Origin: a virus
Virus record (IMG/VR): IMGVR_UViG_3300042307_002096
Span: 14,041 to 78,040 of that record
Direction: 5' to 3' (one strand)
DNA length: 64,000 nucleotides
Part shown: piece after piece, positions 3,248 through 41,513 of the stretch
Layout of the letters: every line of letters starts with the position of its first letter
How positions within the stretch are numbered: position 1 is the stretch's first letter
Notes under the pieces: model-generated
Seen by the model: the letters and a program-made list of their open reading frames with translations, nothing else
The model's database searches: none
What the model was told of the DNA's origin: nothing
Program-made: the position numbers and the translations under genes

Positions 3248-3711
3248 GGGGGTGTACTGGTTTCGACAAATGGTTGAAATTAAAAGTGCATGTAGAGGTT
3301 GATCGATGGCCTCTTTAAAAATCGATTAAAAAAACTAAACGCAGAATCTAATAATTCTGATCTCCTAACTGAAGCTGAATATATCTTCAACAACGCCGAC
3401 GAAATTCTCGCTGGTGCTGAAGAGTTTTCACTAGCAGCCTAAGAGCCTTATACTGGATCCTCTAAAAGTATTTGGAAAATGCAGAGGGGTTGCAGTGAGT
3501 AGGTGTCTAGCAACAGAAAAGCAACAAGACCTATCGGCAATGGATGTACGATAATATCCATAGGTAGACATAAAATACGCGGTTAGTACAACCAAACGAC
3601 CTAGTGTCCGTGTTACCGCAAGGTGATTGAAACGTTGAATGTACTCAAGCATGTGAAGATCTTTTAACGTAAGTTATTTGGACAGGGGTTCGATTCCCCT
3701 CACCTCCACCA
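3248..3711 (+). ncRNA. ssrA: tmRNA
   Basis: 5' GGGGGTGtactggtttcgac; 3' GACAGGGGTTCGATTCCCCTCACCTCCACCA; G3:U70 alanine acceptor pair; tag ORF 3341-3442 starts GCA and ends ...FSLAA-stop. Confidence 0.95.
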
Positions 3712-3737
3712 ATTTCAAATGATTAAATAAAATAAAA

Positions 3738-3828
3738 GGACAGATGGCAGAGTTGGTCTATTGCATCTGACTAGAAATCAGAAGTGCTCGAAAGGGCACC
3801 GTGGGTTCGAATCCTACTCTGTCCGCCA
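3738..3828 (+). tRNA. tRNA-Ser(AGA)
   Basis: GGACAGA/TCTGTCC acceptor, G73, anticodon arm TCTGA-CTAGAAA-TCAGA, long variable arm, TTCGAAT loop, CCA. Confidence 0.9.
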
Positions 3829-3829
3829 C

Positions 3830-3928
3830 TTATTTCTTTTTTTTATTAGCTCCTTTTTGAGAAGATTTGGAACCTGGTTGTTTTGGTTTCTTTTTTTCTT
3901 TTTTTTGTGAGAGATTTCCTTTAGCCAT
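3830..3928 (-). CDS. 32-aa lysine-rich peptide (not in ORF track)
   Basis: Translated by hand: MAKGNLSQKKEKKKPKQPGSKSSQKGANKKKK*; TAAGTA late-promoter-like box upstream. Confidence 0.5.
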   Translation of the reverse strand: MAKGNLSQKKEKKKPKQPGSKSSQKGANKKKK

Positions 3929-3985
3929 AGTAATATTACTTATTTTTTTCTTGACAATTTTTTTAATTCAACTAGTATATAAATC

Positions 3986-4297
3986 ATGCAACCAACCATC
4001 AAAACATTAAGGCAAAGTGGATATAAAGTGCGAGTGATTCATACTCGAAATTATAAGATCGTTAAAAAAATAAGCGGAGATCATTGTGAAATTTTGGCGC
4101 GAGGAGGAAGCACAACAATTCAAATTACAACTCCTGACAAAAAATACGATGCACAAGGAGTTGCTGAATGCTCCGACAAAGACAATTTTAGCAAAAAAAC
4201 CGGAAACTTTATTGCTGTTGGACGAGCACTAAAAGAACTAAAAGAAATGATGGAAAACGATTGCATTTCCAATGAAGATTTTAATAATATTGGTTGA
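3986..4297 (+). CDS. hypothetical phage protein
   Basis: 103 aa; preceded by TTGACA-N16-TAGTAT (3951-3978). Confidence 0.7.
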   Translation: MQPTIKTLRQSGYKVRVIHTRNYKIVKKISGDHCEILARGGSTTIQITTPDKKYDAQGVAECSDKDNFSKKTGNFIAVGRALKELKEMMENDCISNEDFNNIG

Positions 4298-4330
4298 TCT
4301 GTCCACTATTTAATAGTAGAGTATAAAAAC

Positions 4331-4558
4331 GCTCGAGTGGAGTAGAGCAGTTAAAGAAGACCTAGCTTCTATAAAATTCTAGAAAGATTTTTGAAAAATT
4401 AATTTTTACGCCTCCATGATGAAATTGGTAAACATTGTCGACTTAAAATCGACTGCTCTTGAGCTTCCCGGTTCGAATCCGGGTGGAGGTACCATTTTTT
4501 TTGTCAATTATTTATACAAAAAAAAAAAATTAAATTTCGAGTCCCTTCTCGAGTACCA
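4331..4558 (+). pseudogene. split tRNA remnant (Leu-like) flanking the tRNA-Leu(TAA) gene
   Basis: 5' GCTCGAGTGG (4331-4340) pairs with 3' TTCGAGTCCCTT-CTCGAGT-ACCA (4536-4558); the middle is unrelated sequence. Confidence 0.55.
4410..4494 (+). tRNA. tRNA-Leu(TAA)
   Basis: GCCTCCA/TGGAGGT acceptor, GTCGA-CTTAAAA-TCGAC, variable arm, CCA. Confidence 0.92.
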
Positions 4559-4568
4559 ATTTAACAAA

Positions 4569-4655
4569 GGGTTACTATACCGTTAAAGAGACGGTCCGGA
4601 CTGTAAATCCGGCATGCATCGCATTCGCTAGGAGCATTACCTAGGTGGCCCACCA
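4569..4655 (+). tRNA. tRNA-Tyr(GTA), non-canonical D and T loops
   Basis: GGGTTAC/GTGGCCC acceptor, CCGGA-CTGTAAA-TCCGG, T arm CTAGG-AGCATTA-CCTAG, CCA. Confidence 0.8.
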
Positions 4656-4658
4656 TAC

Positions 4659-4732
4659 GCGGGATTAGTTTAATGATAAAACAGGAGTTTTCCAAACTTC
4701 GGTTGGGAGTTTGATTCTCCCATCCCGCACCA
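4659..4732 (+). tRNA. tRNA-Gly(TCC)
   Basis: GCGGGAT/ATCCCGC acceptor, GGAGT-TTTCCAA-ACTTC, CCA. Confidence 0.88.
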
Positions 4733-4752
4733 TTTTACACAAACACACAATT

Positions 4753-4929
4753 ATGACACAAACAGAAAACACAACCGAAGGAAAAGTATATCAACTATGC
4801 CAGGAGCTAGATGATATCAAGAAGCGCAAAAAAGCTTTTGTTAAAGCCTATAACGTCGAAATTAGGCGCATTCAAGACGAAATTCAAGATATTCTTAATC
4901 CGGAAGAAGCTGTAGTAGAACTTCCATAA
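4753..4929 (+). CDS. small coiled-coil hypothetical protein
   Basis: MTQTENTTEGK... ORF between tRNAs; start moved downstream to avoid overlapping tRNA-Gly. Confidence 0.6.
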   Translation: MTQTENTTEGKVYQLCQELDDIKKRKKAFVKAYNVEIRRIQDEIQDILNPEEAVVELP

Positions 4930-4940
4930 ATAAACTAAAT

Positions 4941-5017
4941 AGACTTGTAGCTCAGTTGGTTAGAGCATCTCGTTGATAACGAGAGGGTCGTAGGTTCAAG
5001 TCCTACCAGGTCTACCA
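4941..5017 (+). tRNA. tRNA-Ile(GAT)
   Basis: AGACTTG/CAGGTCT acceptor, TCTCG-TTGATAA-CGAGA, CCA. Confidence 0.92.
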
Positions 5018-5022
5018 AGATT

Positions 5023-5097
5023 GCTCCCATAGTGTAACGGTTAGCACACCACCCTCTCACGGTGGTAGTAGGGGTTCGAATCCCCTTGGGAGTGCCA
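5023..5097 (+). tRNA. tRNA-Glu(CTC)
   Basis: GCTCCCA/TGGGAGT acceptor, CCACC-CTCTCAC-GGTGG, CCA. Confidence 0.92.
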
Positions 5098-5105
5098 TAC
5101 TATAT

Positions 5106-5252
5106 ATGAAGGTACAAAAAACAACTTCTGCCCAAATGCCCTTCAAAGACCACTTTAAAAAAGAACAACAAAAGAAAAAAGAGCAAGAAAAGAAAAAAGC
5201 TGTTGATAAGTCCGACAAAAAGACAGATAGTAATTTTATTGGATGGGCATAA
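5106..5252 (+). CDS. 48-aa lysine-rich peptide (not in ORF track)
   Basis: MKVQKTTSAQMPFKDHFKKEQQKKKEQEKKK...FIGWA* fills the inter-tRNA gap. Confidence 0.45.
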   Translation: MKVQKTTSAQMPFKDHFKKEQQKKKEQEKKKAVDKSDKKTDSNFIGWA

Positions 5253-5264
5253 GTAATTTCATAA

Positions 5265-5351
5265 CCCGGAGTGTGAGAAGTCTGGTATCTCAGTGCGCTC
5301 ATAACGCACCGCCTACGTGCCTCGCAGGTTCAAATCCTGCCTCCGGAACCA
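5265..5351 (+). tRNA. tRNA-Met(CAT), initiator-like (C1:A72 mismatch)
   Basis: CCCGGAG/CTCCGGA acceptor, GTGCG-CTCATAA-CGCAC, 14-nt variable region, CCA. Confidence 0.8.
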
Positions 5352-6090
5352 TTTGACAAAATTTGTTAAATTCTTGTTCAACAAATTTTTTATTAAATTT
5401 TCCTAAATCTTTTATAATGTACGGAACGTAACCGTTTTTTACAATTGCTAGTTGTTTTAAACGGTCTCGATTTTGAACTTGTAATAAAGAATGTCGTTTA
5501 GTTATTTGTTTATAATGCCAAGCACCGTTCCACAAAATTGCAATTTTAAAATCTGGTATTATAACATCAGCGTCCCATCCCTCAAACAAAGGCTCATTGT
5601 GAAGTACGTTTGCAAATTTGGCTTTACAAAGTTCATAAAAATATATTTCATTTTTGCTCCGTTTAATTTGTCTGGATGCGGAAACCAACCCTCCAATTCT
5701 AGCTCCTTCTTTTTTTCTTTGGGTCGAGCAACCTTCAGAACATGTTTTTCTTTTATGCAAAGATTCAATTTTCGTCTTACAAACAACGCACTCATACGTC
5801 TTCAATGTTTTTGCTTTATATTTTTTATATACTTTTTTTGTTGAAAAAGGAGTTGTCTTTGTTCGTTGTTTGTTATTAAAAGTTGCAGCACAAGAACGAG
5901 AGCAAAATTTTGTATTTTTTCCGTTATTTCTTAATTGCTGATAAGACAATATGCTGTTGCAGTTTAAGCAGCTTTTAGGATTAGATTTGTACTCTTCTAC
6001 TCTTTTTTGGTATTGTTCTTTTTGATACTTGCCGGCTCCATTGATATATCTATGGTCCGGTTTGTTGTTTAACTCTAATCTGTTTTTCAT
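5299..6090 (-). CDS. putative free-standing homing endonuclease (Zn-finger repeats plus Vsr/PD-(D/E)xK-like domain)
   Basis: CxxC...FCSRSC and CxxC...TCSEGC repeats, then RSKNE...WDADVII...AILWNGAWHY...RDRLK; antisense within the tRNA cluster. Confidence 0.7.
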   Translation of the reverse strand: MKNRLELNNKPDHRYINGAGKYQKEQYQKRVEEYKSNPKSCLNCNSILSYQQLRNNGKNTKFCSRSCAATFNNKQRTKTTPFSTKKVYKKYKAKTLKTYECVVCKTKIESLHKRKTCSEGCSTQRKKEGARIGGLVSASRQIKRSKNEIYFYELCKAKFANVLHNEPLFEGWDADVIIPDFKIAILWNGAWHYKQITKRHSLLQVQNRDRLKQLAIVKNGYVPYIIKDLGKFNKKFVEQEFNKFCQMVPEAGFEPARHVGGAL

Positions 6091-6229
6091 AATTATATTC
6101 GAGAGGACAGCTAGTTCTTAATCTGTCTAGTTTCTTTAAAGTTCGTACCTTTAAAGATTACTCTCATAAATTATTTATCTTTTTGTGTTGCAATTACAAG
6201 AATGTGTAAATAATTATATTCAATTAAAC

Positions 6230-6336
6230 GCCCTGTTAGCTCAGAGGTAGAGCAACGGTTTTGTGAGTTGTCAGCCTTTTGTCGGACAATTCTCATAAAC
6301 CGTCGGTCATCCGTTCAAATCGGATACGGGGCTCCA
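6230..6336 (+). tRNA. tRNA-Thr(TGT) with 32-nt insertion in the anticodon loop
   Basis: GCCCTGT/ACGGGGC acceptor, canonical D and T arms, ACGGT-TTTGT[6265-6296]AA-ACCGT, CCA. Confidence 0.8.
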
Positions 6337-6342
6337 ATTTAA

Positions 6343-6417
6343 TCCTAGGTAGCTCAGCGGAAGAGTCGTCGGCTGTTAACCGATTGGTCGTAGGTTCGAA
6401 TCCTACCCTAGGAGCCA
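6343..6417 (+). tRNA. tRNA-Asn(GTT)
   Basis: TCCTAGG/CCTAGGA acceptor, loop CTGTTAA, G73, CCA. Confidence 0.92.
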
Positions 6418-6484
6418 CGTCTGTTCGTCAGTTACTCAGTTGACTTGTCCGTCATTCAATAGTATCCTTATCTCATAATAAAAA

Positions 6485-6559
6485 GTCTCGATCGTTCAAC
6501 GGATAGGACAGAGCTCTTCTAAAGCCCTAATGTAGGTTCGATTCCTACTCGAGACACCA
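6485..6559 (+). tRNA. tRNA-Arg(TCT)
   Basis: GTCTCGA/TCGAGAC acceptor, loop CTTCTAA, CCA. Confidence 0.9.
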
Positions 6560-9315: not shown

Positions 9316-9386
9316 ATAGTGCACACTCTCGACGAAAGCCAAATAGCTTAGCATTAAAAAATAAACCAATTTGCCTAAGTATGATT

Positions 9387-9992
9387 ATGCACGACATAAT
9401 CAAGGTTTTTTTGGTTTTAAGTTTGGTTTTATTTACAACTTCTTGTACTGTATATACAGAAAAACAATCAGAAGCATTGTCGAGCTCAATATATGCAGCT
9501 AAGGACTCCATGGATGTGGCTAGAATTGATTTAGCTGACAAATATGTTGCTGAATCAACAAGACTTGTTAAACCACCCAAAAAAAGAATTGACATTCAAT
9601 CCGTATATAAAAAAAGCGTAGATATTTCGTCTAATGGCAAATTAAATCAAGCGAGTGTTGTTAAGCAAAGAGTAGTAGTTATTCCCGAAAAATATAGAAC
9701 TGATGCAGTAATTGTTGTTAGTTCTGCTGAATATCAAAAGTTATTAGAAGACAAAGAAACGTACGAACAAATTAAAAAAGACAATTTGAGTTTAGTTGAG
9801 GTTAAAGCAGCAGTCGACAGCGAACTAATTCGACAAACGGACAATAGAGATAAGATGGTTAATGATCTCAATATAATGCAAAAAAAATTAATTGAGAAAG
9901 ATTTGGCTATACTTCGTCGCAATATTTTTATTGTTGCGTTGATTGGAACAATTGGTGCAGGTGCTTATTTAAGATTGAAAGGAATATTATAA
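9387..9992 (+). CDS. putative unimolecular spanin (lipoprotein with C-terminal TM)
   Basis: Signal peptide with lipobox-like FTTS-C, coiled coil, C-terminal TM IFIVALIGTIGAGAYL; first gene of the lysis cluster; TAAGTA box 5 nt upstream. Confidence 0.6.
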   Translation: MHDIIKVFLVLSLVLFTTSCTVYTEKQSEALSSSIYAAKDSMDVARIDLADKYVAESTRLVKPPKKRIDIQSVYKKSVDISSNGKLNQASVVKQRVVVIPEKYRTDAVIVVSSAEYQKLLEDKETYEQIKKDNLSLVEVKAAVDSELIRQTDNRDKMVNDLNIMQKKLIEKDLAILRRNIFIVALIGTIGAGAYLRLKGIL

Positions 9993-10423
9993 TGTTTCCA
10001 TTTATAAAAAACATAACATTGTCAGCTATTGCTTTTTTAAGCAGTAACAAAGTTCCTCCAAACACACCGCCAGAGGATTGTGATAGGTTAAAATCAATAA
10101 ATCACATGGAATCTAAAAAATTCTTTATTGTGTTAACATCTGTTTTTATTCTTGCTTTTTTTTATTTTGTTAGCGTTGGTGTGCTATTCATGTTACCTCA
10201 TAATGCACCTGAATTTGTTAGTGGTTTTGTAACGCTGTTTTCAAAAACAATTGAAATTTTAGCTGTTGTTATAGCTTCGTATGTTGGAGCACAAGCTGTT
10301 GTTGATTTAAAATACGCTAGCAATTCTAGTGCTTCTTTAGCAGGGGATACGCACACAGAAAACACACAAAATGTTACTGTGATACAAACAAACATGAAAG
10401 AGGATGATTATGAACTCGTCTAA
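9992..10423 (+). CDS. putative holin
   Basis: Two TM segments, acidic C-terminus, immediately upstream of the endolysin. Confidence 0.55.
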   Translation: MFPFIKNITLSAIAFLSSNKVPPNTPPEDCDRLKSINHMESKKFFIVLTSVFILAFFYFVSVGVLFMLPHNAPEFVSGFVTLFSKTIEILAVVIASYVGAQAVVDLKYASNSSASLAGDTHTENTQNVTVIQTNMKEDDYELV

Positions 10424-11027
10424 GCCTTCTGAAAAAACATTAGAATTACTACTCCGGTATGAAGTTGGTGGAGGTAAGCCATATTATGAAAAATATCTTT
10501 CAAAATTTACTTGGCCTGGCGGAGCATCAGGACCAACAATTGCTATTGGAGTAGATTGTGCTTATTATTCAGAAAGTGAATTATTTAAAATATTTTCATT
10601 TCTTCCAAAAAATCAATTAATTCAAGTTCAAGGAGCTTCGGGAAAATCTGGAGAAAAGGGAAGGTTGTATACGGTTAAATTAAGAGCTGCAGGAATTACT
10701 GTAACTTGGGATAAAGCTCTTGAAATTTTTGAGCAACTTACGTGGCCAAAATTCACAAAATTAGCAGAAAAAACGTTTCCTGGATTGGAAAATTTGCACC
10801 CAGATGCTTACGGAGCCATTATATCTTTGGTGTTTAATAGAGGCACAAGTCTTGTTGGAGAAAAGCGAAAGGAAATGGCTAACATTAAAAATTTGATTTC
10901 TACAAAAAAATACAAACAAATTGCACAAGAGGTTCGTAACATGAAACGTATTTGGGTTGGAAAGGGTTTGGACGGTTTGATAGAAAGAAGAGAATCTGAG
11001 GCAAGATTAATTGAATCAGTCATATGA
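10410..11027 (+). CDS. endolysin (lysozyme-fold muramidase)
   Basis: YEVGGG...WPGGASGPTIAIGVD, AIISLVFNRG, GLIERRESEARL. Confidence 0.85.
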   Translation: MNSSKPSEKTLELLLRYEVGGGKPYYEKYLSKFTWPGGASGPTIAIGVDCAYYSESELFKIFSFLPKNQLIQVQGASGKSGEKGRLYTVKLRAAGITVTWDKALEIFEQLTWPKFTKLAEKTFPGLENLHPDAYGAIISLVFNRGTSLVGEKRKEMANIKNLISTKKYKQIAQEVRNMKRIWVGKGLDGLIERRESEARLIESVI

Positions 11028-11941
11028 ATAAAACGCCTAAAAAAAAGTTGACTTCGTGCGAAAATGAAGAAATTTTAAAAAGCATCGAAACTAGACAAAA
11101 TTCTTTGAATAGCTTGTCTAAATATTTGTCAGAATTAGAAAGTCAGCTTGCTTTGGTGTTTGCTTCGTCACCTGATATAATCGTGTTCTTAGATCAAGAT
11201 TCTACGATATTAAAAATAAGTGATGCAGCTTTTACTATATTGGGTTATACACGATCAGATTTAGTTGGTAGGCCAATATGGGATTTTATTGATTCAGAAG
11301 ATGCTATAGAAACTCGTAAAAAATTTTTAGAATTAAGAGAAAAAAAAGTAATGTACTTTGATGGGCAAAAAGCACTCGTCAATCATTGGATATCTAAAAG
11401 CGGAAACAAAGTAAAGTTAGTATGGAGATTTTCTTTGTGTGACGAGAGAGAAAATCAAACAATTGGTATTGCATCTGACATTACTCAGTTTAGTCCAAAT
11501 AATGCTTATAGCTATAAATTGCTAGAAAAAGCAGTAGAGTCTTCAACAGACGGAATTGTGATTACAGATGCACAACACCCGGACAATGTAATGGTGTATG
11601 TTAATAGCGCTTTTGAGAAAATTACGGGATATACGAGTAACGAATTAATAGGCAACAACTGCAGAATGCTGCAGACGGACGACACAAAAAGTTCCAGAGC
11701 ACTTAAAACTCTGAGATCTTGTATTAAATCCGGAAAAAATTGCGACGTATTGCTGCAAAATAAAAGAAAAAACGGAGAAGTATTTTATTCTAGATTAGCA
11801 ATATCGGCTGTTATTGAACACGGAGTAGTTGTTAACTTTATTGGAGTAGTCAGGGATATAACAGATAAAATTGACGTAAAATATGAGTGGTCTCCAAACG
11901 CAGAAAGCGGATTTATACATTTAAGCAATCGCCATGAATAA
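11024..11941 (+). CDS. PAS + LOV-type PAS sensor protein without effector domain
   Basis: PAS1 (SPDII...ILGYTRSDLVG...SDIT); PAS2 DGIVITDAQHPDNVMVYVNSAFEKITGY...GNNCRMLQ...NKRKNGE...RDIT matches the LOV GxNCRFLQ signature. Confidence 0.88.
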   Translation: MNKTPKKKLTSCENEEILKSIETRQNSLNSLSKYLSELESQLALVFASSPDIIVFLDQDSTILKISDAAFTILGYTRSDLVGRPIWDFIDSEDAIETRKKFLELREKKVMYFDGQKALVNHWISKSGNKVKLVWRFSLCDERENQTIGIASDITQFSPNNAYSYKLLEKAVESSTDGIVITDAQHPDNVMVYVNSAFEKITGYTSNELIGNNCRMLQTDDTKSSRALKTLRSCIKSGKNCDVLLQNKRKNGEVFYSRLAISAVIEHGVVVNFIGVVRDITDKIDVKYEWSPNAESGFIHLSNRHE

Positions 11942-12338
11942 CAAATTTGAACAAAGCAACATAAATCATTATGAAGGGAACGGCTGGTCTAAATATCAGC
12001 TGATGGTGTTGCAACAATTAGAAGACCATCACAGATTGTTGCAAAATCTAAACAAAGATATTAATGAGTTAAGACAAGCAAACGCAGTGTCAGATACAGA
12101 GCTAAAAATGTGGAGATCTCAAACAATGATTACCGTTCAAAAGTTGGAAGAGGAAGTTGATGAAATACTGTATGATGAAAAAGGACTAAACTCTAAAGTA
12201 TCAACAATTGAGAGAGAGCTGAATATAGAAGAACAAGCAAGTACTAAATGGAAGGCCACATTGGCTCTTTATGGTTCTATAGCAGTATTTTTACTAAATA
12301 CCATTGTGCAAATAGTTACAGCATATATTAAAAAGTAA
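11934..12338 (+). CDS. coiled-coil protein with C-terminal TM helix
   Basis: Heptad-rich body; TM LALYGSIAVFLLNTIVQIVTAYI; overlaps the PAS-LOV stop. Confidence 0.7.
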   Translation: MNNKFEQSNINHYEGNGWSKYQLMVLQQLEDHHRLLQNLNKDINELRQANAVSDTELKMWRSQTMITVQKLEEEVDEILYDEKGLNSKVSTIERELNIEEQASTKWKATLALYGSIAVFLLNTIVQIVTAYIKK

Positions 12339-12339
12339 T

Positions 12340-12528
12340 ATGTTTTTTATTGGCAATCAAGGGCCTGTAATTGAAAGGGATCCAACCATTCAACAGCTTA
12401 AACAAAATGTTGCTGATAGATTGTGGGATATTGTTAAAGAAGAACCAGTAAGTACACAAGAAAATAAAATAAAATTTGTGTCTTTCGAAGATGCTTTAAA
12501 CGAATTAATTGCTGTAAATAGTCTTTGA
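12340..12528 (+). CDS. hypothetical protein
   Basis: 62-aa ORF 1 nt after the previous stop. Confidence 0.5.
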   Translation: MFFIGNQGPVIERDPTIQQLKQNVADRLWDIVKEEPVSTQENKIKFVSFEDALNELIAVNSL

Positions 12529-12599
12529 TTGTTTAATTTTTTTTTTTGTTGCCTTGTTTGTTTAATTGCCGTATAGTGGTCCTTGTAACAATCAAACAT

Positions 12600-13448
12600 A
12601 TGACTACACTAACACTTGAACAAGCCACGACAATAGTCCCAGCAATTGGAGCAAATTCCCCATCCGACCGCGTATCCAATCGCTATCAATTTGTGTCGAC
12701 CCGAGACATTCTTGAACGTGTACAGCAAGACGGGTGGACAATTACGAACGCAACCGCTCAAAACCGTTCTCCTTATGCTCAACACCGAATCACTTTGGTA
12801 CACCAAAATGATCTCAGTACAGCAAATGATTCTAATTCAGAGGGTATTCCTCGTATTGAAATGTTTAACTCTCATGACCGAAGCAAACGGTTGATGTTTG
12901 CAATTGGTTTTTTTCGTTTTGTTTGTTCAAACGGTCTTATTGTAGCTTCCGGTCCTGCTGAAACAATTCGAATTAAGCATCGTTTTTCAGGAGACCGTTT
13001 GTCTGAAATTATGGAGCAAGTTTCTCAAATTTCTAGTCGTTTTCCTACAATTCAAAATACAATTAATAATTTTAAGTCCCGCGAGATGGCTGAAGATGAG
13101 CAAGTTTTGTTTGCTCAATACGCAATTAAGGGTCGTTTTAATTATCGACCAGCAATGCCTAAACGTTTTCAAGATACAGAACGTACCGTAGAACGGCTTT
13201 TGCAATCACGTCGAGATGCTGATTCTGGTAATTCCGTTTGGCAGGTATACAACCGCGTTCAAGAAAACCTTATTAGTGGCATGGAGGGTTTCTCCCGTCC
13301 TATCCGAGGATATTTTGACAACGTTCGAGTAAACCAACTTTTGTGGAAAGGTGCTGAAACCACGCTTCGGTTTGACAAACAACAACTCCGCTCTGCATTA
13401 ATGGATCTTATTACTAAAGACGGCAAAAAAAATAAAATATCTGCTTGA
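12600..13448 (+). CDS. DUF932/DUF945 family protein
   Basis: SNRYQFVST, NSHD...AIGFFRFVCSNGLI, WQVYNRVQENL, NQLLW motifs. Confidence 0.8.
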   Translation: MTTLTLEQATTIVPAIGANSPSDRVSNRYQFVSTRDILERVQQDGWTITNATAQNRSPYAQHRITLVHQNDLSTANDSNSEGIPRIEMFNSHDRSKRLMFAIGFFRFVCSNGLIVASGPAETIRIKHRFSGDRLSEIMEQVSQISSRFPTIQNTINNFKSREMAEDEQVLFAQYAIKGRFNYRPAMPKRFQDTERTVERLLQSRRDADSGNSVWQVYNRVQENLISGMEGFSRPIRGYFDNVRVNQLLWKGAETTLRFDKQQLRSALMDLITKDGKKNKISA

Positions 13449-15906: not shown

Positions 15907-16923
15907 GTGGAGCTAAATCAAGAATTTCTTATAGAGACGTTTTATTCTTATTGCAAAAGACCTTTGCATAGGAAGTATCAGAACGTTTTTAATGCAGAAT
16001 GTCCCGTTTGTAAGGAAGGAAAGTCCGCCGGTAGATCTAGGCGTTTATTTTATTTTCCTCATAAGCAGTATTTCTTTTGTCATAATTGTTCTAAGTCCTG
16101 GAAACCTTTTGAATGGGTCAAAGAAGTAACTACTCTTACTGTTCCAGAAATTATAAAAAGAAATAACGAAAAATCCGGAGAGATTACAAAATACACAAAA
16201 CTCAACAAAGTTACTCCTTTAAGTGCTAACTTTGTTATACCTGATCTTCCAGAAAGTAGTATTGAGCTCACAGACCCAACTCAAGTAGAGTTTTATAAAG
16301 ACAATAAGTTTATTAAATTAGCTTTAGAGTATTGTCAAAACAGACGATTGTTGACAGCTGTTAATACATGCAAACGGTTTTTCTTGTCATTAGAAGACAA
16401 AGTACATAAAAACCGTTTGGTTATTCCTTTTTATGATAATTCAAATAAGGTAGTATGTTACCAAACCCGATCTTTAACTAAACACCAATTTCCTAAATAC
16501 CTGACAAAGTTTGGAGAAAAAGAATTATTTGGAACTAATAACATTGATTCAGAAATTCCTTATGTTTTTGTTTTCGAAGGTCCAATTGATTCTATGTTCG
16601 TAAAAAATGGAGTAGCAATGGCTTCTTTAGCACCTACTGAAAAGCAAATGCAGCAGTTAAGCAATTTGTTTGGTTATGAGCAAATTTATGTTTTTGATAA
16701 CGACAAAAATAATAAACAGACAGCTAAGAAAATTGAAAAGTATATTAAAGAAGGAAAAAGGATCTTTATTTGGCCAAAAGAATTTTCCAAGTTTAAAGAC
16801 TTCAATGAAGTTTGTTGCAATTTAGGATTAGATGAAATTCCGTGGAAGTTTGTTTTGAAGAATTCTGCAGAAGGACCAGAAGCATTAATAAAGCAAAAAC
16901 TTCTTAGGTCCCAGCCATTTTAG
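15907..16923 (+). CDS. DNA primase (T4 gp61-like)
   Basis: Zn finger CPVC...FFCHNC; TOPRIM EGPIDS and VFDND; KDFNE. Confidence 0.9.
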   Translation: MELNQEFLIETFYSYCKRPLHRKYQNVFNAECPVCKEGKSAGRSRRLFYFPHKQYFFCHNCSKSWKPFEWVKEVTTLTVPEIIKRNNEKSGEITKYTKLNKVTPLSANFVIPDLPESSIELTDPTQVEFYKDNKFIKLALEYCQNRRLLTAVNTCKRFFLSLEDKVHKNRLVIPFYDNSNKVVCYQTRSLTKHQFPKYLTKFGEKELFGTNNIDSEIPYVFVFEGPIDSMFVKNGVAMASLAPTEKQMQQLSNLFGYEQIYVFDNDKNNKQTAKKIEKYIKEGKRIFIWPKEFSKFKDFNEVCCNLGLDEIPWKFVLKNSAEGPEALIKQKLLRSQPF

Positions 16924-18454
16924 TTCCAAGCATACCAGCTTGAGCTATTTGAGTTGCTGCTCCAAGTTTTCCTGACCAATCCGTTGGTTCTCCTTCTCGA
17001 ATATAATTTCCTAAGTCTCGAATTTTGTTTATTAAGTCTTCAGCTGAATCGTTTCCGGATTTGGATTGAACGTCGATATTAGCTAACGTATACCCTCCTT
17101 TAGGTATTGACATGTTTTGTTCGCTCGAAGAAAGAGATGAGTCTGTAGTATTAATAGGGGTATCGGTTTGTGTTTGTTCGCTCGAAGAAAGAGATGAGTC
17201 TGTAGTATTACTGGGGGTATCAGTTTGTGTTTGTTTGCTTTTTGAAGAAGCCTGAGTAGCAGCGTTTTGCAATAAAGAATTAAACGAATCGTTCTTGTTG
17301 CTCGAAAGAGATAGTACAGAAGCTGAAGGACTTGACATTCCTGTCAATTTTAATAATTCTTCCTCAGAAATTTTAGCTATTTCTTGGTTCTGTGTTTGGT
17401 TTATTACTGTAATAGTTTTATTAATTTTATCATGAATAATTTGTGTTTTTTCGTCCCCAATATTAGGGCCGGCCATGATGGATTTAGTAGCTGTCGCTTC
17501 TGTTAAAATTTTGCAGTAGTTTAATACAGATCTATTAAAATTTGACAAACGTTTTTCAAAAACAAAATTACCATCTTTAAGTGTATTTTTTACAAATATT
17601 TCTAAATTATTTGGTTTAATTGTGTCAGAAGCAAATTGTGCGACTTGATTGTTATAATATTTGCGAATAGCATTTCCGAGTTCCAACAATTTTTCGACTG
17701 AAGCCTTATCGTAAAGTCTTGCGTATTTTCCTTTTATGAGTTGGCCTCCTCCTGCATAAGAGTTAATATTTCCATATAAAATGTCGTTTATAAATGAATT
17801 TGCGGCTGGTACCGTGTTCATTGGATCTCTAACTTTTTTGCGAGCCGACAGCAATCCTAGTACTGTTGTGTAAATACTTGCTTTTGGATCTTTTAAATAT
17901 TTTTCTAAAGCTAATTCTCCTATAACGTTTTCGGTTAATTTTTTGCGAAGACCTGATTCCAGCATGCGAGCTTGAACAGTCAATGATGAGTAATCTAATG
18001 GCCATCCATTTTCTTTGGCTTGTTTATTAAAATATTCTATATATTCGTTAATACTTTCGGTTTGCTGCTCAATATTTATTACGCTTAAATTTTTTTCAAA
18101 ATCATTAAACAGCGCTTTGTTTTTGCCGCTTAATTTTTGCACAATGTACAAAATAAAATCCACGAGAGGAAATGCCTCAACATACCGTGTAAACGGCGCA
18201 ATTGTAAGTTGGTTTTTGTCAGCAGATTGTCTTATTGTTGATATAAGTGTTTTTAAATCATTCGTGCTTTGGAGAACTGGTTTTTTATAAATTTTTTGAT
18301 ACGCAGAATTAAATAGTTCATACGGTGTTTGATTATTATTAATTTTTGTTTCGGCAAAAAACCCATAACTAAGATCAGAAGAGCTACTGGTGGTCTGAAT
18401 CACTTCCTCAACCTCGTTCAACAAACTTTCAACAATGCTTTCAAAATCAATCAT
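16904..18454 (-). CDS. large hypothetical, possible internal virion protein
   Basis: Starts MIDFESIVESLLNE; TAATTA box 5 nt upstream; contains S/T-rich repeat. Confidence 0.6.
   Translation of the reverse strand: MIDFESIVESLLNEVEEVIQTTSSSSDLSYGFFAETKINNNQTPYELFNSAYQKIYKKPVLQSTNDLKTLISTIRQSADKNQLTIAPFTRYVEAFPLVDFILYIVQKLSGKNKALFNDFEKNLSVINIEQQTESINEYIEYFNKQAKENGWPLDYSSLTVQARMLESGLRKKLTENVIGELALEKYLKDPKASIYTTVLGLLSARKKVRDPMNTVPAANSFINDILYGNINSYAGGGQLIKGKYARLYDKASVEKLLELGNAIRKYYNNQVAQFASDTIKPNNLEIFVKNTLKDGNFVFEKRLSNFNRSVLNYCKILTEATATKSIMAGPNIGDEKTQIIHDKINKTITVINQTQNQEIAKISEEELLKLTGMSSPSASVLSLSSNKNDSFNSLLQNAATQASSKSKQTQTDTPSNTTDSSLSSSEQTQTDTPINTTDSSLSSSEQNMSIPKGGYTLANIDVQSKSGNDSAEDLINKIRDLGNYIREGEPTDWSGKLGAATQIAQAGMLGTKMAGT
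17117..17234. repeat. 57-bp in-frame tandem duplication (19 aa)
   Basis: ttgttcgctcgaagaaagagatgagtctgtagtatta... at 17117 and 17174; encodes QTQTDTPxNTTDSSLSSSE twice. Confidence 0.9.
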
Positions 18455-18508
18455 TATGTTAATTATCATTTTGAGGTGAAAATTGCACACAAACTATTAA
18501 ATAAGAAT

Positions 18509-40415: not shown

Positions 40416-41513
40416 ATGAATCTCATCGAAGCTAAATTTATTGAATCAGGATTGAAATACAAATCCAATTTTGAAGTGTCAAAATTAACCAATATTGTTG
40501 CGCACGAGCAACAAAAAAATTGCAATCAATACTACAAATGGTATGCAACGTATGAAAATATAGTATACCCAATTAATTTAACTAGAAACAAAACATTTTT
40601 AATTGATGTTTTTTGTAACGAGTGCGACAAAATAATTAAAAAGGATGCTAGATTAAGCTCAATGTTCACGTTTTCTATTTGCTGTGAGAGCAATTTAAAG
40701 TATTCAGAGTCTTTTTCTGTCCGATGCAAAAAATGTTCTAGCAGGAAAAACGGGTCAGAAACCGTGCAAAAAGGAGTTAATACTCGTCTACAACGTTATG
40801 GGTGTGCATATACGTTTCAAATGCCAAATTATGCTAGAGACGCTCACATAACTAAAACGTTGAAATACGGAGTTGATTATAAAAAAATTTGTTCAAAAAA
40901 GGGACAAAAGAGGTATTTCGATAAAACAGGTTATAATCACAACATGAAAAACCCTGAATGTGTAAATGTTCACAAACAAAAAAGAAAACAGACTATTTTA
41001 AATTGGACACCAGAACGTAAAACAGAAATAAATACAAAAAGGTTATTATCATATCAAAAAGAAAGTTCGGATGGTCTTTTTGGAAAAAAAAGTAAAAATC
41101 CTAGAAGCAAAATATCTATAGATTTTTACGAACAATTTTACAAAGCAACCGACTATTCGATATGCATTGAAGAACAAATTGGTAGATATATTGTAGATTT
41201 TTTAATACCAAATATGTGTATTATTGAATTTTATGGTACATTTTGGCATGCAGATCCAAGAAAATACAAAGCTGGTGACATCCTTAAGCGAGGAAATAGT
41301 GAAAAATATCATGTAACAGCTCAAGAAGTATGGCAAAAAGATTACGAAAGAATCACAGAATTAGTGGAAAACACTAAACTTCCTTGTATAATTGTTTGGG
41401 AGAATGATTATAGAAAAAACAAAGGAGCGACAATCCAAACCGTTTTGCAAAAAATAATAAAATTTAAAAACATCCACTTAGCACAGAATGAGCAAAGAAC
41501 CAATTCCATCTAA
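40416..41513 (+). CDS. putative free-standing homing endonuclease (Vsr-like C-terminal domain)
   Basis: T.L.RYG/KYG repeats; YIVDFL...IIEFYGTFWHADP...VWE; inserted between uvsX and the helicase. Confidence 0.75.
   Translation: MNLIEAKFIESGLKYKSNFEVSKLTNIVAHEQQKNCNQYYKWYATYENIVYPINLTRNKTFLIDVFCNECDKIIKKDARLSSMFTFSICCESNLKYSESFSVRCKKCSSRKNGSETVQKGVNTRLQRYGCAYTFQMPNYARDAHITKTLKYGVDYKKICSKKGQKRYFDKTGYNHNMKNPECVNVHKQKRKQTILNWTPERKTEINTKRLLSYQKESSDGLFGKKSKNPRSKISIDFYEQFYKATDYSICIEEQIGRYIVDFLIPNMCIIEFYGTFWHADPRKYKAGDILKRGNSEKYHVTAQEVWQKDYERITELVENTKLPCIIVWENDYRKNKGATIQTVLQKIIKFKNIHLAQNEQRTNSI

Follow-up and report, generated by a model that had tools for sequence, protein, structure and literature searches.

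The window analysed here, a stretch of 64,000 nucleotides (nt) of the IMG/VR virus record IMGVR_UViG_3300042307_002096, carries between positions 9376 and 12338 five overlapping genes that are best explained as a late-transcribed lysis cassette of a phage with a Gram-negative host, with an optional two-gene accessory module at the 3' end. The module encodes a helix-PAS-PAS protein, whose second PAS domain is, judged by its sequence, derived from LOV photosensor domains and keeps the cysteine of the flavin adduct (Cys213), and a small coiled-coil protein with a C-terminal membrane anchor. We tentatively propose that this module tunes holin triggering, the tail-anchored protein being the effector, the PAS-LOV protein its cytoplasmic regulator, and the flavin state (blue light or redox) the likely input.

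The lysis cassette

The promoter-like box and the five genes are the following, with lengths in amino acids (aa) and transmembrane abbreviated as TM:

9376-9381, + strand: TAAGTA box, late-promoter-like as read from the sequence, overlapping the ATG at 9381 and 5 nt before the ATG at 9387; function putative
9381-9992, + strand: u-spanin-like protein, 203 aa (alternative start at 9387), with an N-terminal signal and conserved Cys (TTSC followed by TVYTEKQSEAL), a coiled-coil middle and a C-terminal TM helix
9992-10423, + strand: holin-like protein, 143 aa, with two TM helices (about 41-71 and 75-107), a conserved N-terminal VPPNTP segment and an acidic C-tail (alignment A2)
10404-11027, + strand: endolysin, GH24-type lysozyme, 207 aa, with no signal or SAR (signal-arrest-release) segment; Pfam Phage_lysozyme (PF00959), E 8.4e-6 and 26.6 bits, above the gathering score of 22.3; PHROG endolysin matches
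11024-11941, + strand: cytoplasmic helix-PAS-PAS(LOV-like) protein, 305 aa; Pfam PAS_9, E 7.6e-33, in two stretches
11934-12338, + strand: tail-anchored coiled-coil protein, 134 aa, with the N-motif YEGNGWSKYQxxVLQQLxDH, one long helix and a TM segment at about 109-132 (nt 12258-12329)

All five genes lie where the preliminary description of this DNA had placed them, behind the TAAGTA box and with overlapping starts and stops. The junction of the spanin and holin genes is TAATG, with an overlap of 1 nt, and the holin and endolysin genes overlap by 20 nt, the endolysin stop and the PAS start by 4 nt (ATGA), and the PAS and coiled-coil genes by 8 nt. No terminator-like site with a convincing stem was found between any of the five genes. 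The translational overlap of the PAS gene with the endolysin stop on one side and the coiled-coil start on the other is counted in favour of a lysis module.

A TAAGTA hexamer taken singly is weak evidence. The motif TAA[AGT]TA occurs, at a distance of at most 16 nt, upstream of 13 of the 70 open reading frame (ORF) starts of the window, where about 1.6 would be expected, and a TAAGTA or TAAATA box is retained upstream of the spanin gene in the relatives. The ORF starts bearing it are mostly those of structural genes, including the terminase and the sheath (examples at 40416, 47986, 48330, 50997, 53174 and 56060). It is a candidate late-promoter motif, and its closeness to the ATG may give transcripts with very short leaders. 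The earlier label of the box as late-promoter-like is in consequence reasonable for a putative promoter; a scan for sigma-70 promoters, which returned fewer sites than shuffled sequence, was uninformative.

The products of the first three genes agree with the reading of the set as a lysis cassette. The 203-aa protein has hydrophobic segments at residues 1-27 (ending in conserved SC followed by T) and 175-199, and thus combines a lipoprotein signal with Cys and a C-terminal TM helix as in unimolecular spanins (u-spanins) of the T1 gp11 type. It has no Pfam match and no homology to T1 gp11, and it is its architecture and position that point to a u-spanin role. In the relatives this slot is filled by homologues at 33-65% identity or by a two-gene pair encoding a lipoprotein and a membrane protein.

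The holin-like protein has the traits of class II type holins, being small, with two TM helices, a charged C-tail and a gene beside that of the endolysin. No named holin family was matched in Pfam or PHROGs, its neighbours in the Atlas are unnamed viral clusters, and a comparison of the family with SPP1 gp26 by hhalign gave no relation. Its C-tail tracks the type of endolysin, reading ..KEDDYEL with the GH24 lysozyme and ..KDDxSYAPxxW.. with an M15 peptidase (window 10300-10423, alignment A2); from the alignment, this pairing suggests either that a recombination breakpoint lies inside the holin gene, at its 3' end, or that the tail is fitted to the endolysin. The endolysin itself belongs to the GH24 phage lysozymes by its Pfam score.

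The helix-PAS-PAS protein and its LOV-type domain

In the 305-aa protein Pfam recognised PAS families only and no output domain, as had been stated before for kinases and other outputs. Its AF2 model (mean predicted local distance difference test score, pLDDT, 79) comprises a helix (11-48), PAS1 (52-152), PAS2 (177-278) and strands in the C-tail (287-299); a long helix thus stands where the preliminary description had seen an N-terminal coiled coil. The parts of the protein are:

11054-11167, + strand: long N-terminal helix, residues 11-48 (AF2), with invariant residues; mean entropy 1.02 bits
11168-11488, + strand: PAS1, residues 49-155, a generic PAS domain with no cofactor signature; best PDB sequence matches are generic PAS domains, E 3e-7 or weaker
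11516-11869, + strand: PAS2, residues 165-282, LOV-type by PDB sequence matches, Foldseek and residue mapping
11651-11674, + strand: GNNCRMLQ of PAS2, residues 210-217, with Cys213 at 11660-11662
11789-11791, + strand: Ser256 of PAS2
11849-11851, + strand: Val276 of PAS2
11870-11917, + strand: C-terminal tail KYEWSPNxESGF, residues 283-298, with W289, G296 and F297 invariant; mean entropy 0.99 bits

Of the 141 PDB sequence matches of PAS2 (E <= 0.001), the 60 best consist almost wholly of LOV domains and of receptors that contain one; the top E is 1.6e-23, identities are 34-45%, and the matches include the LOV-GGDEF protein 8c05, the short LOV proteins of P. putida, aureochrome, phototropin and YtvA. 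The PAS2 model superposes on LOV structures in Foldseek with a root-mean-square deviation of 1.3-2.1 A at 34-38% identity. On YtvA numbering, G59, N61, C62, R63, L65, Q66, R79 and N94 are kept, and the core flavin contacts N212, R214, Q217 and N246 are retained. The GNNCRMLQ motif with the photoactive Cys was correctly located in the preliminary description, and residues and fold together point to a LOV origin of the domain.

Among known systems, the phage protein is most usefully set beside the short LOV proteins (P. putida PpSB1-LOV and PpSB2-LOV; PDB 3sw1, 7a6p, 5luv) and LOV-GGDEF 8c05, the identity of PAS2 to these being 34-45% over the LOV core. As in short LOV proteins, PAS2 has PDNxxxYxNxxF and NCRxLQ with the adduct Cys, no enzymatic output is fused to it, and signalling would go through helices or tails and protein contacts. 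Unlike them, the protein is encoded by a phage and has an additional long N-terminal helix and a generic PAS1. Moreover its C-tail, which occupies the place of the J-alpha output helix of LOV proteins, is strand-forming rather than helical, and Val and Ser stand in PAS2 for the active-site Gln and the second Asn. Flavin binding is putative.

The tail-anchored coiled-coil protein

The AF2 model of the 134-aa protein is a single helix (residues 20-133, pLDDT 83) running into the TM segment. Since the protein has no signal sequence, its coiled coil should be cytoplasmic and share a compartment with the PAS protein; a periplasmic, RI-like placement of the coiled-coil domain was rejected for the same reason. 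An exhaustive profile search collected 76 clusters of small proteins that share the N-motif NGWxxYQxLVLxxLxxH, followed by a variable coiled coil and a C-terminal TM helix. Among the remote relatives of this family (alignment A4), one matches HATPase_c (E 1.3e-6); a PHROG annotated as 'kinase' was matched by one member in another scan. Co-folding of the PAS protein with residues 1-108 of the coiled-coil protein (alignments A1 and A3) gave a score of 0.00, which counts neither for nor against binding.

Distribution and gene neighbourhood of the pair

At least 158 homologues of the PAS protein were found in a large protein database, at 44-82% identity, all of about 300 aa and encoded on contigs of up to 224 kb; they are metagenomic and almost all viral. 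In a set with one representative genome per species (about 185,000 prokaryote species) the single match was a 5-kb contig with phage-like neighbours that had been binned into a metagenome-assembled genome. The helix-PAS-PAS family is therefore effectively viral.

In 32 neighbourhoods on contigs of viral or metagenomic origin, the PAS gene has the coiled-coil gene behind it wherever the contig reaches far enough. In the main clade a holin homologue and the endolysin precede the PAS gene, and the order endolysin, PAS, coiled-coil was found in about 20 distinct loci, with an endolysin of GH24 or M15_4 type (the latter with or without PG_binding_1) and a spanin of either type. In locus L024 (46% identity) the pair faces a GH108 endolysin and a holin homologue, which lie on the opposite strand in convergent orientation. 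The association of the sensor with lysis genes has thus been preserved across three unrelated endolysin types, both spanin types and one inversion. The synteny search that had been proposed for this locus gave a positive answer: linkage to lysis genes and to the coiled-coil/TM gene recurs in dozens of metagenomic loci.

The PAS gene was never seen without the coiled-coil gene, whereas the latter occurs without the former in L111 and in L122-124, which fits a membrane effector with an add-on sensor. In L122-124 the lone coiled-coil gene adjoins an HNH gene and lies about 2 kb from an M15 endolysin. In L111 a 62-aa ORF between the endolysin and coiled-coil genes (1895-2083) corresponds to the start of the PAS N-helix only (..LLLQTIKTRQIELRKLS..); it is a deletion remnant, and the sensor has been lost recently there while the membrane partner was retained.

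A possible role in lysis timing

In the mechanism that we propose, the 134-aa protein would be tail-anchored in the inner membrane with its long coiled coil facing the cytoplasm. By analogy with XhlA of PBSX and gp24.1 of SPP1, it would act on the holin in the membrane and shift the time of hole formation. The 305-aa protein would be its cytoplasmic regulator, binding through the N-helix, the C-tail or both; these two are the most conserved regions of the PAS family and resemble interaction surfaces, which we count in favour of this mechanism. In the source phage the PAS protein probably still holds flavin, and either blue light, by way of the Cys213 adduct, or the redox state of the flavin could then cause a conformational change and so tune lysis timing.

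A bolder form of this proposal would be that a natural LOV photoreceptor, the first known from a virus, is encoded by the phage family and through its membrane partner gates the holin so that lysis is timed by daylight or by flavin redox state. We regard this bolder form as quite unlikely. The earlier remark that no described example was known is in line with full-text searches, in which no description of a phage lysis cassette with a natural LOV or PAS protein was found.

Arguments against the proposed role and alternative explanations

A number of observations weigh against a flavin-tuned lysis, and they are given here together with the explanations to which they lend support. The first of them concern the flavin site. 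Compared with YtvA, PAS2 has Met for F64, Ser256 for N104 and, on strand I-beta, Val276 for the active-site Q123. A published LOV filter (PMC9098866) asks for at least eight of the nine YtvA residues G59, N61, C62, R63, F64, L65, Q66, N94 and N104; the 305-aa protein scores 7/9 and so falls under this threshold. The preliminary description had read a flavin-LOV signature here, of which the LOV descent and the Cys stand and the completeness does not.

The same holds across the family, where conservation and decay were counted on 110 full-length members. The LOV filter is passed by 17 of them, and the active-site Gln is found in none, its place being taken by S, V or I. The Cys and the core contacts are intact in 42 members; in a further 20 the contacts remain but the Cys is replaced by Gly, Ala or Thr, and the other 48 have a broken core. 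Moreover the photochemical positions are among the least conserved of PAS2, with entropies of 1.8-2.6 bits against a domain mean of 1.49.

Such figures are in line with an alternative in which the pair does modulate lysis and the LOV domain is a relic. The PAS protein would then be a light-blind scaffold or adaptor for the coiled-coil protein, or PAS1 would sense some other intracellular cue, and the Cys would have no photochemical role. What is conserved in place of the photochemical residues is the N-helix and the C-tail, and the Cys state changes at least nine times on the family tree, which makes the decay repeated and independent while the gene was kept. Even in the clade of the window one member, P0015, has lost the whole motif. 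Against a relic speaks that an 8-9/9 signature is found both in the branch that splits off deepest and in inner clades scattered over the tree, which indicates that the ancestor was a proper, Gln-less LOV protein whose photochemistry was lost repeatedly. In the clade of the window, where overall identity is 75-82%, the N, C, R and Q of NCRxxQ are kept in 21 of the 22 members.

Loss of the Gln need not abolish function either, as about 350 natural Gln-less LOV receptors exist, one of which was shown to signal (Dietler et al. 2022, PMC9098866), and N104 mutants of YtvA are stable with a photocycle that is changed only moderately (PMC4161478). A working flavin photosensor in the 305-aa protein is thus plausible, not established. 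The phage family shares with these LOV-deltaQ receptors (PMC9098866) the lack of the Gln, and the S, V or I found in its place also occur among them. Unlike the LOV-deltaQ set, which is cellular and has enzymatic outputs, the window protein lacks two of the nine filter residues (F to M and N to S), and many of its phage relatives are without a flavin pocket. We consider a relic LOV domain an unlikely explanation.

The other observations concern the place of the pair in the genomes. A scan of viral contigs with the holin alignment gave at least 148 loci, in all of which the holin homologue lies directly upstream of an endolysin; presence was counted in 73 of the best 80, those with at least 2.5 kb downstream. 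Neither gene was present in 66 of the 73 cassettes, the coiled-coil gene only in 4 and both in 3. Locus L036 has a holin 87-88% identical to that of the window and no pair, in L064 and L084/85 the backbone of spanin, holin, lysozyme, small ORF and DUF932 is the same but the pair is missing, and presence of the pair flips at least ten times on the holin tree. The pair being optional, lysis does not need it, and the holin has no visible co-adaptation to it. Moreover, in two diverged lineages, represented by L006/L008/L125 and by L031, the neighbour of the pair is an HNH endonuclease gene; the flanks that were retrieved hold no lysis genes, and no holin homologue was found in the 81-kb and 97-kb records of these lineages.

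The HNH gene lies directly upstream of the pair in L006 (5303-5929, minus strand), L031 (4023-4646, minus strand) and L125 (69-692, minus strand), and directly upstream of the lone coiled-coil gene in L122 (3197-3838, minus strand), with a small lipoprotein gene nearby in three of these four loci. This adjacency hints that the module moves with a homing endonuclease.

Homology adds no support for a role in lysis. None of the five cassette proteins has a T4 RI or RIII family among its Pfam or PHROG matches, and no known antiholin homology is therefore at hand. A fused form of the PAS and coiled-coil proteins was found neither among the PAS homologues nor in a search for longer coiled-coil proteins.

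The pair could accordingly be a mobile accessory module unrelated to lysis timing, which serves for example superinfection exclusion, anti-defence or host manipulation and sits in a permissive, late-expressed slot. Its presence and absence alternate among close relatives, always in the same slot, and the genes behind the endolysin vary so widely between relatives that this slot is a recombination boundary. The three HNH-linked loci off the lysis genes, and the lack of homology to known lysis regulators, fit such a module as well. It accounts less well for the association with holin and endolysin in four arrangements (GH24, M15_4, GH108 with a convergent holin, and the lone coiled-coil gene about 2 kb from an M15 endolysin), for the translational overlap with the endolysin gene, and for a partner protein that has the architecture of known holin partners. 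We judge this explanation, too, to be on the unlikely side.

The architecture just mentioned is that of XhlA (PBSX) and gp24.1 (SPP1), single-TM proteins that cooperate with a two-TM holin and whose genes flank the endolysin gene (PMC6316719; PMC5589764). The 134-aa protein is likewise small, has a single C-terminal TM helix and is encoded beside a two-TM holin and an endolysin; in PBSX (XhlA/XhlB/XlyA) and SPP1 (gp24.1/gp25/gp26), too, a protein of matching helix-plus-TM architecture and a two-TM holin flank or adjoin the endolysin gene. Unlike those systems, the phage has a Gram-negative host and spanins, its coiled coil is longer with an NGWSKYQ motif of its own, and the protein is optional, coupled to a PAS sensor and without significant homology to its counterparts. 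Pfam XhlA (PF10779) matched 2 of 37 members of the coiled-coil family at E 0.045, which does not amount to membership, and XhlA-type 'hemolysin' PHROGs matched 10 of the 37, weakly (best 1.2e-5); of the remote relatives 3 of 44 had XhlA matches (best 9e-5). Against SPP1 gp24.1 the family reached a probability of 26% in hhalign, which is not significant and is a further point against the proposed role. The links to XhlA are thus recurrent but sub-threshold, and the resemblance would at most be one in the way of working, family membership being unsupported. That lysis should require the 134-aa protein as a second holin subunit, in the manner of XhlA with XhlB, and that the PAS protein should be merely its chaperone, is very improbable: the mirroring of SPP1 genes 24.1-25-26 and the weak XhlA-type matches would favour this, but 66 of 73 cassettes of the same holin family are without the protein, for which reason that role was rejected.

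In T4 lysis inhibition the holin T is regulated by the periplasmic RI and the cytoplasmic RIII (PMC8385771, PMC11413866). As the window comes from a T4-like phage, accessory proteins might here also adjust holin timing in response to a signal, and RIII is a precedent for a cytoplasmic lysis regulator. There is no sequence relation to the T4 proteins, and in place of superinfection the signal would come from within the cell (flavin, light or redox), such regulation being proposed here by analogy. A search for Phage_holin_T in G000 and G003, the complete relative included, found none; the control set gave no match either, so that this is weak evidence.

Of the light- or redox-gated lysis suggested in the preliminary description, what holds is the linkage to lysis genes, the LOV identity and the Cys. 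Its weak points are the incomplete signature and the decay of this signature in the family, the optional nature of the pair and the two lineages with the pair away from lysis genes. Tuning of holin triggering by the pair is retained as our tentative reading.

The phage and the genes around the cassette

The record that spans the window (as its bases 14041-78040) is 78 kb long, with a CheckV completeness of about 37%, and the G+C content of the window is 33%. T4-type replication and structural genes were found in the window, namely those for a family-B DNA polymerase, UvsX, a DnaB-like helicase, the large terminase and the tail sheath, the polymerase having only about 31% identity to that of any cultured T4-like phage. 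The source is an uncultured, large, T4-like phage. The locus recurs in a relative whose genome, of 217 kb and with terminal repeats, is complete; the PAS-PAS protein is the sole PAS protein there, which is counted in favour of the proposed role.

A search of a phage collection with the DNA of the locus gave no match. With the PAS protein, the same collection gave LOV-domain matches only; these lie on one faecal contig and on short 'Listeria phage' records that have no annotation, at a coverage of at most 41%, and no cultured phage of the collection carries the PAS gene.

Directly behind the cassette, the following small gene was found:

12340-12528, + strand: conserved soluble ORF, 62 aa (..VSFEDAL.EL..), starting 1 nt after the coiled-coil gene

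This ORF, found also in L059, L064, L082, L093, L095 and other loci, accompanies the lysis cassette whether or not the PAS pair is present, and has no family match in Pfam or PHROGs; its product may be a further small lysis-associated protein. Its position varies, being after the coiled-coil gene in the window, directly behind the endolysin in pair-less relatives, and before the holin in some M15-type cassettes. A gene for a DUF932 protein (12546-13448, E 2e-27) follows the cassette, with 68-79% identity in the relatives.

Elsewhere in the window, region 3248-6559 holds a 464-nt tmRNA gene (ARAGORN), whose tag, EAEYIFNNADEILAGAEEFSLAA, is unusually long, together with eight tRNA genes, the cluster lying upstream of the DNA ligase gene. 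An ORF of 528 aa without PHROG match (16904-18490, minus strand) sits in an otherwise plus-strand region.

Implications for phage biology

Lysis timing is a central fitness trait of phages. To our knowledge, the only well-understood sensory control of lysis is the lysis inhibition of T-even phages, which responds to superinfection. If our reading is true, a flavin/LOV sensor wired to lysis would be a new class of input, through which light, the day-night cycle or the energy state of the cell could be perceived, and LOV-gated lysis would bear on how aquatic viruses shape microbial turnover. The pair would also offer optogenetics a compact natural connection of a LOV domain to a membrane protein.

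Even if the LOV domain is blind, the helix-PAS-PAS proteins form a new, large family that is restricted to viruses and coupled to a tail-anchored coiled-coil partner, and the wider NGWxxYQ tail-anchored family to which this partner belongs is new as well. Moreover, the repeated decay of photochemical residues in a protein that is nevertheless retained is a natural experiment on the LOV scaffold without photochemistry.

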